Shown here: in pieces, positions 15,158 through 27,448 of the stretch
Position numbering within the stretch: the first letter of the stretch is position 1
Layout: each line of letters starts with the position of its first letter
Notes under the pieces: generated by a model
The model's input: only the letters and a program-made list of their open reading frames with translations
Told to the model about the DNA's origin: nothing
Databases searched by the model: none
Virus genome (UHGV): UHGV-1805288
Direction: 5' to 3' (one strand)
DNA length: 27,558 nt
Source: a virus
Position numbers and translations under genes: made by a program

Positions 15158-15186
15158 ATTATAACATATTTTTCAAAAAAAATCAA
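15158..15186 (-). promoter_or_regulatory. sigma70-type promoter (TTGATT-N17-TATAAT, TG-extended -10)
   Basis: Plus strand attata 15158..15163 and aatcaa 15181..15186, 17-nt spacer; minus strand reads ...TGTTATAAT. Lies immediately upstream of the zinc-finger/dnaB/primase gene string. Confidence 0.55.
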
Positions 15187-15218
15187 CCCAAAGCGATTTT
15201 AGGGTCGCTCTGGGTTGA
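15183..15218 (-). terminator. rho-independent terminator after the Sak4-like gene
   Basis: Arms tcaacccaaagcga / tcgctctgggttga (14 bp, one G-U), 8-nt loop, followed on the minus strand by U8 (rc of aaaaaaaa at 15173..15180). Confidence 0.65.
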
Positions 15219-15233
15219 TAAAATCTATTTTAA

Positions 15234-16232
15234 TTAACCCTTATTAAGTTGAGGAAGAAGGTCTTCCTTCATTTCAGTTACAATCAAGCTAATAAATTCA
15301 GCTTGATCCATGGTAGCATCAGAAACTTTCTTACCTTTACCCAAGTATTTATCAACAATTTGAGTAATACGAGGAGCAAAGAAATTAGGATTCTTATTCA
15401 TCATCTGACCAGTTAGCTCTTGGAACTCATTAATAAGAGCATCATAGTCATAAGATTTAGCGACCTCAGCAACTTCACGTTCATTAGTAACATACTTATT
15501 ATCGTGCATAGCGGCTTCCTTATCAATAGCATCATTAAGAGCCTTAACAAGATTATCATAAGTAAATTCAATCACAGGAGTAATATACTTAAAACGACAA
15601 CCAGTCTCAGCGCTATTGTCAGGAGAACGAAGAACAAGTCTCACCTTAGCTTCACCATTCTCAGTATACTTTTCAGCATAAGCATAAATGTCAGCCATGT
15701 CCTTAGCAATGTTATTATAAGAAGTAGGACAAGTAGGAACAATTTGGTTATACTCAATACCATTCTTATTCTTAAAGGTCTTATCCTTAGAGTGAGAAAT
15801 AAAAACAACAGCATAACCAAGTTGAGTAATTGTGCGGAAAGTCTCTTCAAATTCCTTCTTTACTAAAGTCCAACCTTGACCATAAGGAATACCAGAAAGC
15901 GCATCTACACCATTCTATGAACAAATATATTTCTCACAAAGACCGCCAGCAACATCAACAGTATCAACTGCAATAGACTTAAATCTCTCTTTAACTTCTG
16001 GCTTTTTAAGTTCACGCAAAACCTGCTTCATTTCACCCCAGGTAGTAACATCCTGAGCAAAAACACCAGGCAAAGCATTATAACCTTTCTCAAACGCCAG
16101 AATCAGCGGACTTGGCATATGAGAAGCAAATGTAGTCTTACCACTTTTCTCAGCACCATAAACATAGGTAATATAACCAGAAAGGTCTCTACTAACTTTA
16201 TGGGGCTAAATAGACATTAAATCAATACCCAT
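15234..16232 (-). CDS. Sak4-like / AAA_24-type RecA-fold ATPase (recombination protein), tentative
   Basis: Track ORFs 15915..16118 and 15234..15698 share a frame; full frame open from ATG 16232 (GGAG upstream) with 2 in-frame TAG (16206, 15915). Walker A YVYGAEKSGKTTFA followed by ILAFEKGYNALPGV...VTTWGE...IAVDTVD. Confidence 0.5.
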
Positions 16233-16402: not shown

Positions 16403-17341
16403 TTAGAAATTAAAGCCACCAGCTGCAGGAGCCGCAATATTACTCTGACGAGAAGCCTTATACTCATCTTGACGTTGTTTAATAGTAGCAAGATAAGTCT
16501 GACGCTCAGTCATGGCCTAATTAAGCTCAGCTGCAGTAATAAAGTTTTCATCATCCCAAGGATAAGGTTCCTTGGCACCACCAGTAATTACAAAATCCTT
16601 ACGAGTGCTCTGAACCTCACGAACACTATCATCACCAAAAGCGGACTCCTCACGCTCAATACGCTTAATCACTTCAGAAATCTGACGACCCCAAACCTTA
16701 GTGAAAACAGGCTCAGAGTTAGTAGCACCAAGTCCCTCATAATAAGCCATAGCGCCCTCAGAAGTCGCGCTAAATTCAACGGGGAGTAGAGCCTTACGGA
16801 AATCAAAAATAGCGCCACGCACAATAACCTTTTCAGGAAGATTGCGCTCCTCATTAGCATCAATATGAGAAACATTAGTAATAATCATATCACACTTAAA
16901 AGTATTACGCTGATCTTCGGTGACAAGTTCAGCAGGATTATTGATAATATGAACAAATCCACCCTCATTACGCTTAGTACTTACAAGCTCTTCCTTACCA
17001 TTACGATCAGAATAGAACTCATTAAGGCCAATAGCAGAATCAACACGAATAAGAGCAGCTTTATCAGCTCCATCCTTCATATAAGTGCCAATAGCTCCAT
17101 CAATAATATTGCGAAGAGTGCTATAAGTAGCATTAGCACTTCCCTTTGCAGTAGTCGCAGTTACATAAGTAAAATGAACCTACACAATATTAGTAACATT
17201 ATCATCAGTAGCAATACTAATTGTACCACTAATAAAAGGAGTACCAGGATTCTTAGAATTAGGACCACTTTCCTTGGCAGTCAAATCATGCTCGTAAAGA
17301 ATGCCTTCAATATGAGTTGTATTAGTAATTGTCTTCATCAT
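16403..17341 (-). CDS. hypothetical protein (313 aa); possibly an ssDNA-binding or annealing partner of the Sak4-like ATPase
   Basis: Track ORF 16517..17080 extends through TAG 16517 and TAG 17180 to ATG 17341 (AAGGAGA upstream) and stop TAA 16403..16405. Ends ...AAPAAGGFNF. No motif I can name with confidence; the function is a guess from gene neighbourhood only. Confidence 0.3.
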
Positions 17342-17416
17342 AATATTATATTTCTCCTTAAATTTAAATCAAATTAACTTCAATAAAATTTTCTAATTCT
17401 TAATTACTATATTTAT

Positions 17417-18090: not shown

Positions 18091-19065
18091 TCACTTAATA
18101 CTATAACCAAATTCTTTAGCTTTAAAATAATTCTACCAATAATCTTCTCGTGTATCAAGCTCTTCACGAGAACATTCTTCGATTACTTCAAAACTAAAAT
18201 TTTCAACTCCAAGAGCTAACATAGCAGGATAAAGTTTATTGCGGGTTGGCGTTTCCGCTCCAATACCACGCTTGATATGCTACTTCCATCTTGCTGCCAG
18301 GTCAACAGCCTATCCTACATAGCACATTTGGTTATCAAGATTAGTAATCTTATAAATACCAGTATGAGTTCCTGAACCAATTACTCGACCAATTAAATCA
18401 GTTGTTGGTTTTTCATAATAACTTTTCCAAATAACTTTATTTAATGTTTCTTTATCGCGTAAATGAGGTTCAATTGACCGTAGTAGTTTAATTTCTTCAA
18501 TATCCACAGATGATAACTATAATTTATAAAAATTAGCTTGATTTTTAATTTCTTCAGTACGTTTAGCTGCTTCAATAGCCGCGTCAACTTCACGAGTTAA
18601 TTTAAAAATCTTATCATCTAAAACTTCTAATTCTCTTTGTTTCTCTTGGATTAAATTTACTAAATCTTCTGAGCAACCAGCCATCAAGTTTTTATAACTA
18701 GATTTATAATCTTGTTTAGCCTACTCATATTTACTTTCTTCTAGCTCTAAATCGTGTGCGATATTAGTTCTAGCTAATTCCATAGACTATTTAAAAAATA
18801 CTTCCGCTGATTGCTTGGCCTAGTTTTGTAATAGGTCTAGACTATTAGAAACTTCTTCTCTTTGAATCTTTAATGAACTTAACTCTTTTGTGAGAGTTTC
18901 TTTTTCATCAACTAGTTGTTTATTAAAATTGTATAACTAACGATTCTCTGTTTCGATTTTCTAATCGTATCGCTGTGTTAATTTTAATTTGGGGCGTAAA
19001 ATTAAATACATTAATACACATCCAAGAATTAATGCGATACTACCTACAATTAAATAAATAGTCAT
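18091..19065 (-). CDS. protein with N-terminal transmembrane helix, coiled-coil middle and C-terminal GIY-YIG-like nuclease domain (DUF4041/T5orf172-like architecture)
   Basis: ATG 19065; frame open to TGA 18091..18093 apart from 9 in-frame TAG. N-terminus MTIYLIVGSIALILGCVLMYLILRP is hydrophobic; middle is K/E-rich heptad-like; C-terminus THTGIYKITNLDNQMCYVG-TAG-AVDLAARWK...REDYW-TAG-NYF. Track ORF 18310..18507 is an internal piece. Confidence 0.5.
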
Positions 19066-19077
19066 ATCTAATAAAAT

Positions 19078-19097
19078 GGGGCAGATTACTCTGCCCC
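19078..19097 (-). terminator. terminator hairpin
   Basis: ggggcaga-ttac-tctgcccc (8-bp GC-rich stem) after the stop at 19118, followed on the minus strand by AUUUUAUUAGAU. Confidence 0.55.
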
Positions 19098-19117
19098 ATA
19101 ATTAATCTATGTTTAAA

Positions 19118-25241: not shown

Positions 25242-25751
25242 TTAATCCTCCTCCGTTCCTTTTAACAATACTTTTCTTATCATAACCATATCCATTATAT
25301 TAACTATATCTTCCGCACGTTTCTTTCCAGTAGCGAGCGCATCAGCTAACTCATTACCTTCATGTCCATTGTGCCCTCTAATTTTTCTTAAATCAATTTT
25401 ATATCCTTCTTGAAGAAGATTATAATAAGTCTGGATTAATTCTAAATTTTCTGGCGGTCGCTAGTCAGATTTAAGCCAGCCACGTCGCGCCCATCCATAC
25501 ATCCATTCATTAAACGTTGATACACAATATGAACTATCACTATAAACAATAGGAATTTCTTTATCTTTACCATAGTGAATTAATGCCCATAAAATAGCTT
25601 TAATTTCTTGAATATTATTTGTAGTATTTAATTCAAAATGTTGATAAGCATCAACAATTTCACCAGAAGAATTATAGACTACAACTCCAAACCCACCACT
25701 ACTATTAGCACGACCATTATTTTTAGCCGAACCATCAGTATAAATTATCAT
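25242..25751 (-). CDS. ribonuclease H (RNase HI-like)
   Basis: Track ORF 25461..25757 extends through TAG 25461..25463 to TAA 25242..25244. MTMIIYTDGSAKNNG...GGFGVVV...YSDSSY and downstream GHNGHEGNELADALA. ATG 25751 with AAAGGAG upstream. Confidence 0.8.
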
Positions 25752-25782
25752 AGTCAATTTTCTCCTTTATTTACTTATTTAT

Positions 25783-25811
25783 ATTATACCATAAATTTAA
25801 AAATTTGTCAA
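25783..25811 (-). promoter_or_regulatory. sigma70-type promoter, perfect TTGACA-N17-TATAAT, upstream of the RNase H-gyrB-gyrA string
   Basis: Plus strand attata 25783..25788 and tgtcaa 25806..25811, 17-nt spacer. Confidence 0.6.
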
Positions 25812-25834
25812 ATTTTATTGAGCTACAATAAAAT

Positions 25835-25863
25835 TTGACAGAAGGAAAAATTTTCAGTATAAT
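25835..25863 (+). promoter_or_regulatory. plus-strand sigma70-type promoter, perfect TTGACA-N17-TATAAT, back-to-back with the minus-strand promoter
   Basis: Plus strand ttgaca 25835..25840 and tataat 25858..25863, 17-nt spacer. No protein-coding ORF follows on the plus strand. Confidence 0.5.
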
Positions 25864-25907
25864 AAGAAATAAGAGAAGAATGTAGATAAGATTTATAATT
25901 ATTAACT

Positions 25908-25963
25908 AAGAGAAAACAAAATTGGGGTCATAACTACGTTATGACCCAATTTTGTTTTCTCTT
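25908..25963. terminator. long near-perfect hairpin, probable bidirectional terminator
   Basis: About 27-bp stem with one bulged G and a 3-nt loop, centred near 25936. It overlaps the holin-like stop codon (25962..25964); the 3' arm is U-rich when read on either strand. Confidence 0.6.
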
Positions 25964-26339
25964 AGATGGTTGGCTCGTCTTCTTCAGCCTCTGTATTTAC
26001 TTCATATTCAATATCAGTATCAGTAGTCGCTTCATCATCAGTATAATAACCAGAATTATTACGATAATTTTCATAAGCAAGGTCTAATTCTCGCATCACT
26101 GATTCATATTTTACACCATCTTTAGCATTTTCAACAGTTGATTTCTTATAATAATAAACTTGACTTACACCATAAGCAGCCCAAGGAAGGCTAGCGCTAG
26201 CAGTAAGCCAAGGAAGAGAACCAATATAACCACTATAAATACAATAAAATGCCAAAGCAATATAAGCTAGTGTAGAAATCCAAATTAATGCAGATTCTTG
26301 AATTAAAAGAGTTTTTGAAAACTCAAGTTTCTTTTTCAT
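25962..26339 (-). CDS. holin-like small membrane protein (two predicted transmembrane segments, acidic C-terminal tail)
   Basis: Track ORF, 125 aa. Hydrophobic stretches LIWISTLAYIALAFYCIY and SLPWLTASASLPWAAYGV; tail rich in D/E. ATG 26339 lies 2 nt after the endolysin stop, with the SD (AGGAGG) inside the endolysin's last codons. Confidence 0.45.
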   Translation of the reverse strand: MKKKLEFSKTLLIQESALIWISTLAYIALAFYCIYSGYIGSLPWLTASASLPWAAYGVSQVYYYKKSTVENAKDGVKYESVMRELDLAYENYRNNSGYYTDDEATTDTDIEYEVNTEAEEDEPTI

Positions 26340-26341
26340 TC

Positions 26342-27448
26342 TTATTCCTCCTTAAATAATCTATATAATAAGACTATTAATTCTTCACGAGTAATAAAAC
26401 TTTTATATCGCATATTACCCTTAGTATCACCTTGAATAATTCCTTTATTTTCCGCCCATTTGCGAGCATCCACTGACCAAGAGCCAGGGTCTTTAGTAGC
26501 TAATTCTTTAAGGTAAACCGCCATCTAATTATTAAATGTTTGCTATTCTTTTGTTGTTACTGTTGGAGTAGTAGGTTGTGGTGTTGAAGGCACTTCAGTT
26601 ATGGTGTCTTCAATTTTAGTAATATACTATAAGGAAACCCACCCCTTATCAGTCTAACCCCAACCATTATTTTCTGCGGTAATAGTTATTAATGTTCCCT
26701 AGGGATAACTATATACTTTTGTAAATGTAGTGCCAGGGCCAGAGCGCACGTTTAAGGAAGATGCCACAGTTTTAGCTTGATATTTTACTTTAGTCGATGT
26801 TGAAATATTATTTAATAATAATTCTACATCATCACGCACATTATCCATAGTTTTACCATATTTTTTAAACCAATGTAAAACATCACCATGATTACTACCA
26901 TATCCAAGTTTATAACTATCTGCGTGACATAGGATAGTGGGGATATTAGTTGTGCTTACTTTTACTGTTGCTTTTGGATTAATATTATAAATTAAACATA
27001 AATAAGCTGTTAATTCACAGGCTTCTTTATAAACAGCATTAAAATAAGTTTCATCAAGGAGATTATCCTCACATATTTCAAATTGTATCCAGCCTGTATT
27101 ACAGCTACCTTTAGAACCAGAACCGCAACCCCATGGGCGATAATTCCATGGCATAGTCTATATGGTAGTAACAGTGCCATCAGCTAATTTACCTATAAAA
27201 GCATTTAATCCACTCTATTGGGTTGTTGAATTATAATCAGTTTTAGCAGTATTTTTACCTATTTTTTGAATAAGTGTTTTATAATTTTTATCTGTGATGC
27301 TAGGCTAAACATAACGTTTAAGGTTAGGATTATTAGCTCCAGTGCTATGCCATAAAATACCTTTAATATTCATTACTCTTGTGCTCTTATAACATGTGCT
27401 ATTGGTCATTATACATTCAAGAGGCGGATTATTTTTTGAGTATTTCAT
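26342..27448 (-). CDS. endolysin: N-acetylmuramoyl-L-alanine amidase domain + SH3b-like domain + C-terminal SLH domain
   Basis: Track ORFs 26699..27154 and 26342..26524 share a frame with the region up to ATG 27448 (AAAGGAG upstream); 8 in-frame TAG, stop TAA. Amidase-like GILWHSTGANNP...NTGWIQFEICED...CHADSYKLGYGSNHGDV; SH3-like SLNVRSGPGTTFTKVYSYP-TAG-GTLITITAENNGWG; PT-rich linker; SLH-like SWSVDARKWAENKGIIQGDTKGNMRYKSFITREELIVLLYRL. Confidence 0.75.

Follow-up and report, generated by a model that had tools for sequence, protein, structure and literature searches.

The OOP RNA of phage lambda is a 77-nt antisense RNA that is transcribed from pO in the interval separating cII from replication genes O and P and that covers ~50 nt of the cII coding sequence. 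In phage phi29, TD1 is an intrinsic bidirectional terminator between transcription units. In the Firmicutes, type I antitoxins that overlap the 3′ end of their partner gene include those of the txpA/RatA and bsrG/SR4 pairs of Bacillus subtilis prophages and that of the par system (RNA I/RNA II) of Enterococcus pAD1. The Fst-like locus of S. mutans (PMC3543317) provides a streptococcal case for comparison.

We analyzed a 27,558-nt stretch of a virus genome (UHGV-1805288), referred to in its entirety as the window, which is a fragment of a large gut phage with 32% GC in which TAG is a sense codon. The original prediction described a plus-strand consensus promoter that points at no open reading frame (ORF) and, downstream of it, a long hairpin at the end of the lysis genes, and it proposed either a small RNA (sRNA) or a convergent-transcription control on lysis.

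The RNA predicted at this locus would resemble lambda OOP in being short, in starting at a strong host-type promoter and ending at an intrinsic terminator hairpin, in converging on the 3′ end of the upstream gene, next to the boundary with the replication genes, and in encoding no protein. Insofar as it can be predicted from sequence, the OOP-type layout of a short, noncoding, convergent RNA that runs from promoter to terminator is therefore present. The substantial overlap with the 3′ end of the target coding sequence that characterizes OOP and cII is absent, however, since the predicted terminated RNA overlaps only the terminator hairpin; moreover, the target here would be a lysis gene rather than a regulator of lysogeny, and there is no sequence or Rfam relationship to OOP. 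With the type I toxin-antitoxin systems, the locus shares the convergence of a gene for a membrane-damaging protein and a small RNA (a predicted one in our case) on a common bidirectional terminator (25906..25965), a Firmicutes-type layout with sigma-A promoters, and the expectation that the antisense RNA would limit production of a lytic membrane protein. The partner, however, is a 125-aa protein encoded by the last gene of a lysis operon and not a small, stand-alone toxin (<60 aa; about 30 to 60 aa) with its own promoter, and the overlap amounts to ~43 to 60 nt of hairpin only, compared to 75 to 120 nt in the type I systems. The 5′ direct repeats of par are missing, and in contrast to RatA, SR4, and the Fst-type RNAs, the RNA has no significant Rfam match. 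Like bidirectional terminators such as phi29 TD1, the hairpin has a GC-rich core stem with an A-tract and a U-tract and looks like a terminator on both strands; unlike them, it ends a single protein-coding unit, the opposing unit being a noncoding leader of ~36 nt, and in relatives it is effectively one-directional. Judged by these sequence features, the element belongs to neither the lambda OOP family nor the type I antitoxin family. It is probably a new instance of a familiar kind, namely, a cis-antisense promoter/RNA at a phage regulatory border.

RESULTS

All genes in the window lie on the minus strand. Under the standard code, this strand looks broken; once TAG is treated as a sense codon, nearly the entire window is tiled by minus-strand ORFs. 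From high to low coordinates, as transcribed, the genes and elements around the locus are arranged in the order endolysin, 125-aa membrane protein, hairpin, spacer, RNase H, GyrB, GyrA, and ATP-dependent ligase. The endolysin gene (26342..27448, minus strand) encodes Amidase_2 and SH3_3 domains and contains 8 in-frame TAG codons. The last gene of the lysis cassette (25962..26339, minus strand), which contains none, starts 3 nt after the endolysin stop codon, and its 125-aa product is a membrane protein with a hydrophobic N-terminal half; the hydropathy profile shows two hydrophobic segments, one of them strong and the other weak, and the tail is very acidic. Neither this protein nor eight homologues matched any family in Pfam, PHROGs, or NCBIfam, and the putative function expressed by the term “holin-like” is given to it solely for its position after the endolysin and its topology. 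The second membrane protein that follows the holin-like gene in some relatives had no family match either. On the other side of the spacer, the RNase H gene (25242..25757, minus strand; PF00075, E = 1.7e-28), with one in-frame TAG, comes first among the genes under the forward promoter of the replication operon. No tRNA or tmRNA gene was found in the window. Searches of deposited phage genomes returned no similar DNA and, by protein, only two distant uncultured matches.

The plus strand of the spacer carries a sigma-70/sigma-A-type promoter at 25835..25863, antisense to the lysis genes. Its −35 hexamer, TTGACA (25835..25840), and its −10 hexamer, TATAAT (25858..25863), match the consensus at 12 of 12 positions and are separated by 17 bp, within the 16 to 18 bp expected of housekeeping promoters of the TTGACA/TATAAT type. 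An AT-rich, UP-like stretch (AATAAAATT) lies upstream, and the predicted transcription start is near 25870. The consensus promoter that had been predicted here is thus borne out. It had also been called the only plus-strand promoter in the window, which holds for perfect matches but not for weaker ones: plus-strand matches such as the 11/12 match at position 7967 are present, at a frequency close to the chance rate.

Perfect promoters are far more frequent in this DNA than chance would allow. The window contains six 12/12 promoters, one on the plus strand and five on the minus strand, compared to 0.06 expected per window on the basis of 1000 dinucleotide shuffles (an ~100-fold excess), and the 204-nt spacer between the holin-like and RNase H genes (25758..25961) alone contains two, compared to 0.00045 expected. 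Each of the other five perfect promoters lies upstream of a minus-strand gene with a ribosome-binding site, which places the plus-strand promoter in a class that the phage uses for real genes. From its sequence, we consider the plus-strand element to be a genuine host-type (sigma-A/sigma-70) promoter that is probably functional. It is directed toward the 3′ terminus of the lysis operon and has no gene to serve: no conserved ORF lies downstream of it, either among the ORFs of the window or in relatives. The earlier statements that the promoter points at no ORF and that no protein-coding annotation explains it are therefore upheld. One candidate, a 9-codon frame in the leader (ATG-TAG...), was rejected; it has no ribosome-binding site and is missing from the relatives. 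None of the other terminators in the window (7328..7360, 15182..15219, and 19076..19099) is faced by a promoter.

The plus-strand promoter is one half of a back-to-back pair. Its partner is the minus-strand forward promoter of the RNase H/gyrase/ligase operon (25783..25811, read from 25811 to 25783), which has the form TTGACA-17-TG-TATAAT, i.e., a 12/12 match with a TG extension, and downstream of which come a ribosome-binding site and the start of the RNase H gene (25757). This mirrored promoter and the TAG recoding were both overlooked in the original prediction. The two −35 hexamers are held in one palindrome (25806..25840) with 15-nt arms (TGTCAAATTTTATTG and CAATAAAATTTGACA), and the two promoters mirror each other at 77% over 39 nt. 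A role for the palindrome arm as a repeated operator was ruled out, as a search for further exact copies found none beyond its own two arms.

Such symmetry is what might be expected if the antisense promoter were active and its transcript were a by-product, the advantage of the back-to-back layout falling instead to the forward promoter or to the terminator. The benefit might come from a shared UP-like, AT-rich region, from the negative supercoiling generated by divergent transcription, or from a parked polymerase that blocks read-through from the lysis operon. The conservation of the promoter core, described below, without conservation of the leader or of the terminator in the RNA sense, would also fit this explanation. 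However, the geometry of the pair is not fixed. The distance between the two −35 hexamers varies by clade (23, 35 to 37, and 13 nt), the palindrome is not kept (its perfect symmetry is lost in the relatives L032 and L033 and in the L034 group), and the same forward promoter stands without a partner in 40 other flank clusters. We therefore regard a transcript that is merely incidental to the promoter pair as unlikely.

Downstream of the antisense promoter lies a 28-bp hairpin with one bulged G (25906..25965; arms 25906..25934 and 25938..25965, loop TAC), whose arms complement each other perfectly over their outer 21 nt. It begins 42 nt past the −10 hexamer and ~36 nt past the predicted start. 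As RNA, it folds with a free energy of −39.5 kcal/mol (z = −8.6), and none of 200 shuffled sequences folded as well. The near-perfect hairpin of the original prediction, including its overlap with the stop codon of the holin-like ORF (TAA, 25962..25964, minus strand), is thereby confirmed; the palindrome covers only that stop codon and one further base of coding DNA (25962..25965; ≤4 nt). The core stem (GGGTCATAAC/GTTATGACCC) is flanked by A- and U-tracts, and a terminator scan scored the hairpin as terminator-like on both strands of the window, where it has 10 core pairs (5 of them GC) and, in either direction, a AATTTTGTTTT tail.

From the promoter and the U-tract, we infer a terminated plus-strand transcript of ~88 nt (25870..25957), with a predicted 3′ end in the U-tract near 25955..25958, just short of the holin-like stop codon, and a predicted fold of −23.4 kcal/mol (z = −5.5). 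Its leader would comprise ~36 AT- and purine-rich nucleotides, of which the first bases are the conserved TAAGAGAAG. The overlap of this RNA with the holin-like mRNA is confined to the self-folded hairpin (~43 nt), and the leader is complementary to read-through transcripts only; classical antisense pairing would for these reasons be slow. Searches of Rfam gave no match at gathering thresholds and, in E-value mode, only generic long-hairpin matches to miRNA precursors far below threshold. The exact palindrome was not found in IMG/VR, and no par-like repeats of the conserved 5′ motif were found near the holin or endolysin starts, which leaves no second contact of the par kind.

For the comparison with relatives, homologues of the holin-like protein were collected from 31 loci in IMG/VR and 80 in metagenomes, mostly on human-gut contigs of 100 to 200 kb. 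The 3′ flanks of the 102 loci with enough flanking sequence fell into 43 distinct types. The nearest relatives of the window are L032 (on a 187.9-kb contig, with a holin 99% identical) and L033 (94%). In the usual layout, the holin stop codon is followed by an intrinsic terminator, a forward promoter, and the next gene. A strong opposite-facing promoter between the terminator and the forward promoter was present in 3 of the 43 flank types, corresponding to 34 of the 102 loci. It is a 12/12 match in the clade formed by the window, L032, and L033, a 12/12 match with an 18-nt spacer in the L034 group (n = 25), where one variant has its −10 hexamer weakened to TATATT, and TTGACA-17-TACTAT in the L044 group (n = 6). 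The remaining 40 flank clusters have the terminator and the forward promoter and no convincing antisense promoter, from which it follows that, as far as these sequences tell, the antisense promoter is not essential to this type of lysis cassette.

Scores from the terminator comparison were at least as high in the holin sense as in the RNA sense in every promoter-bearing clade. The d-scores for the holin and RNA senses, respectively, were 1.3 and 0.0 in the window, 14 and −38 in L032/L033, 24 to 31 and −11 in the L034 group, and 50 and 13.5 in the L044 group. Since almost every relative has a terminator in the holin sense, and since this orientation scores no lower than the other, the hairpin primarily serves as the intrinsic terminator for the lysis operon (endolysin and holin-like genes) on the minus strand. 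Its earlier interpretation as a special feature of the plus-strand RNA consequently had to be abandoned: nearly all relatives have such a terminator, oriented as the holin-like gene is. The 3′ arm reads AATTAGAAGTTTT in L032/L033 compared to AATTTTGTTTT in the window, so that the U-tract is gone in the RNA direction only, and the terminator scan found the L032 terminator on the holin strand alone. The hairpin is thus a bidirectional intrinsic terminator by its features in the window but not, in the RNA sense, in L032/L033. RNA-sense termination is not conserved among relatives. Given the loss of the U-tract in L032/L033, the clean ~88-nt promoter-to-terminator unit is a property of the window genome. 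The short structured RNA of the original prediction accordingly survives as a prediction for the window genome, at ~88 nt rather than ~95 nt, and does not extend to these two relatives. What is conserved would be antisense transcription toward the lysis genes, as predicted from the promoter, and not a defined sRNA.

These results also bear on whether the ~88-nt product could be a discrete, trans-acting small RNA that regulates phage or host mRNAs through its conserved 5′ end (UAAGAGAAG...). The clean promoter-leader-hairpin-U-tract unit in the window and the sharing of the first transcribed bases (TAAGAGAAG) between the window and L034 clades are what such an RNA would predict. However, L032 and L033, the nearest relatives, have lost RNA-sense termination, which is also weak among the L034-group loci, the remainder of the leader is not conserved, and no Rfam match rose above noise. 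In addition, the best duplex between the leader and other minus-strand regions of the window (−22.7 kcal/mol) was within the range obtained with shuffled leaders (mean, −19.9; standard deviation, 2.0; best, −23.3 kcal/mol). A trans-acting role is, in our view, very unlikely. Of the two options offered in the original prediction, the structured sRNA is thus weakened, and convergent or antisense control of lysis, itself inferred, is the better supported.

Absence or lack of conservation in related genomes would have spoken against the original prediction; instead, the antisense promoter was found to be kept in position, orientation, and sequence in three clades. The sole part of the spacer that can be aligned between clades is a block of ~52 nt (window positions 25827..25878) that comprises the −35 hexamer, the promoter spacer, the −10 hexamer, and the first transcribed bases, with 79 to 85% identity and E values of 1e-4 to 2e-6. 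Within it, the window clade and some members of the L034 group have an identical ATAAAATTTGACAGA stretch; the start region TAAGAGAAG is likewise shared. The stems of the hairpin, the remaining leader sequence, and the DNA separating the two promoters are fully diverged between clades, and the downstream gene encodes RNase H, a 207-aa protein, or GyrB, depending on the clade. This divergence of stems and leader, together with the different downstream genes, indicates that the antisense promoter moves together with the lysis-cassette 3′ end. The promoter has been kept while the holin proteins of the clades are only 67 to 73% identical. In a neighbor-joining tree of the holin proteins, the three promoter-bearing clades fall in one subtree, which also includes L018, L049, and L061, in which both terminator and spacer are lacking. 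The simplest history that these sequences suggest would be a single origin of the antisense promoter and one loss.

Conservation within a single subclade could, formally, also reflect a nonfunctional consensus, an inverted promoter copy that has hitchhiked and been kept only because the relatives diverged recently. AT-rich spacers yield many partial promoter matches, and the motif AAATTTGACAGA-N15/16-TATAAT is generic, matching 91 mostly unrelated viral contigs in IMG/VR. A 12/12 match, however, is expected only 0.00045 times in the spacer, and the hexamers are perfect in two clades even though the surrounding spacer cannot be aligned and the holins are only 67 to 71% identical. We thus assign a low probability to a promoter that was carried along without function.

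Among close relatives, the hairpin loops occur in both orientations, in all three clades. Flipped loops of this kind would be the mark left by template switching at palindromes, which can also turn an imperfect palindrome into a perfect one, and the perfect symmetry of the window hairpin may be a mutational by-product. The same flipped loops suggest extrusion of the hairpin in DNA, and as such they could indicate a transcription-primed replication origin, as could the AT-rich leader and the location of the promoter directly upstream of the replication module. The promoter would then supply an RNA for priming or R-loop formation within the AT-rich DNA beside the RNase H and gyrase genes; oriF and oriG of T4, the primary origin of T7, and an old idea for lambda oop provide precedents. 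Several features of the site are at odds with an origin. The GC skew is negative through the site and has no inflection, the gene strand is unchanged on either side, iterons and direct repeats are absent, and in the other clades the neighboring gene is not the RNase H gene. We therefore think it very improbable that the promoter primes replication.

For TAG-recoded gut phages such as these, it has been proposed as a means of lysis control that in-frame TAG codons prevent the translation of late genes in early infection (Borges et al., bioRxiv 10.1101/2021.08.26.457843); that study makes no mention of promoters or of antisense RNA. In all three promoter-bearing clades, the holin-like gene contains no TAG codon (the endolysin gene has 4 to 8), so recoding places no brake on the translation of the holin-like gene. 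In the sister branch that has lost the spacer (L018/L049/L061), the holin gene contains 3 to 5 in-frame TAG codons, one of them at codon 5. It could be imagined that the TAG-free holin-like gene is guarded instead at its 3′ end, by an antisense promoter that acts early; with the sister lineage having lost promoter and spacer and acquired TAG codons, the antisense promoter and the TAG codons of the holin gene would then be interchangeable safety locks on lysis timing. The association between the antisense promoter and a TAG-free holin is suggestive in the immediate sister clades and not significant overall, and 24 of the 40 other flank clusters have a holin without TAG codons and yet no antisense promoter. 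With a single evolutionary event on one side and these counterexamples on the other, the link between TAG codons and the promoter is only a hint. We consider the idea of interchangeable locks, taken as a whole, to be quite unlikely.

DISCUSSION

Our working interpretation, which we advance tentatively, is that the locus contains a promoter for host RNA polymerase that would give rise to an ~88-nt terminated RNA in the window genome and to read-through antisense RNA in relatives and that would damp the lysis genes. According to this model, RNA polymerase starting from ~25870 would travel ~36 nt and meet the hairpin of the lysis-operon terminator from the wrong side. In the window genome, where the palindrome is perfect, the stem would be followed by a U-tract in the RNA direction too, and an ~88-nt terminated RNA would result, with full complementarity to the terminator end of the holin-like mRNA. 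The closest relatives lack this U-tract, and there the transcript would continue in antisense across the holin-like and endolysin genes. The promoter would be expected to fire while host-type promoters are active, presumably early in infection, alongside the divergently oriented promoter of the replication genes. Leaky or read-through expression of the lysis cassette might then be reduced by convergent transcription and antisense pairing, possibly through collision of polymerases or through double-stranded RNA that is cut by RNase III. The holin-like gene would be a particular target, as, unlike the endolysin gene, it has no TAG codons to restrain its translation. Taken as a separate claim, the proposed role in lowering lysis gene expression is doubtful, and we put it forward only as a possibility.

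The window and L032/L033 represent natural terminating and nonterminating variants of the same arrangement. For annotation, the comparison means that the “sRNA-like” hairpin is the terminator of the lysis operon and that the promoter facing it is what is conserved and selectable. To our knowledge, recoding itself is the sole mechanism of lysis timing so far proposed for these phages. If the antisense promoter is active, it would add control of lysis at the RNA level or by transcription interference in large, uncultured, stop-codon-recoded gut phages.

Terminator hairpin and -35 palindrome

The loop of the terminator hairpin that overlaps the holin-like stop codon (25906..25965; loop, 25935..25937) occurs in either orientation, as reverse complements, among close relatives, and it does so in all three clades in which an antisense promoter faces the lysis genes. 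The paired loops (TAC versus GTA, TTTTA versus TAAAA, and AATA versus ATTA) were found in the window and in loci L032, L033, L035/L037, and L044/L046 of relatives. This two-way orientation across three clades suggests that the hairpin palindrome has repeatedly undergone small inversions or template switching. The hairpin arms are perfectly symmetric in the window, whereas those of L032 and L033 are imperfect; the symmetric arms may be a product of the same process.

A second, perfect palindrome with 15-nt arms (25806..25840) contains both -35 hexamers. We found no further copy elsewhere in the window, and the palindromic symmetry is not kept in relatives. For these reasons, the segment is unlikely to be an operator and probably consists of two UP-like/-35 regions that abut.

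TAG recoding and other ORFs in the window

TAG is a sense codon in this phage, as exemplified at 25461..25463 and within the endolysin gene (26342..27448, minus strand), and minus-strand ORFs tile the window once it is recoded. The number of in-frame TAG codons differs widely from gene to gene: there are 12 in the gene at 8261..10000, 8 each in the endolysin gene and the gene at 5540..6730, 1 in the RNase H gene, and none in the GyrA, GyrB, ligase, and holin-like genes. No suppressor tRNA was found within the window. Reading TAG as sense also opens long plus-strand ORFs at 15249..15866 and 16469..17377. These have a composition like that of shadow ORFs and overlap minus-strand ORFs that resemble real proteins, with a Walker-A ATPase-like ORF (15234..16232, minus strand) among those overlapped; they are probably antisense-frame artifacts.

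On the minus strand, GIY-YIG nuclease-like motifs (YIGQT... and a C-terminal YVGQA...) were visible by eye in two ORFs, 1912..2730 and 18091..19065, which suggests that these are candidate homing-endonuclease-like genes within the replication module.

Lysis cassettes of relatives

In the sister-branch groups L018, L049, and L061, the terminator and spacer are absent from the holin 3' end (locus positions ~3430 to 3450). There, the holin stop codon is overlapped by the promoter of the next gene, with the TGA lying inside TTGACT, and the holin gene has 3 to 5 in-frame TAG codons, one of them at codon 5. Three other flank types carry promoter-like matches (10 to 11 of 12) in antisense orientation at differing positions after the holin stop (~137 to 165 nt in L089, ~117 to 145 nt in L087, and 8 to 36 nt in L109), either within the 5' UTR of the next gene or right after the stop without an intervening terminator. 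Such matches are no more than chance predicts in AT-rich spacers; they could be independent antisense promoters. In L065, L088, L096, and L030, a second small membrane protein gene directly follows the holin-like gene, with no terminator between them. Its product (~106 to 133 amino acids) has an N-terminal hydrophobic helix and no significant match in Pfam. The number of membrane proteins seems to differ between lysis cassettes.
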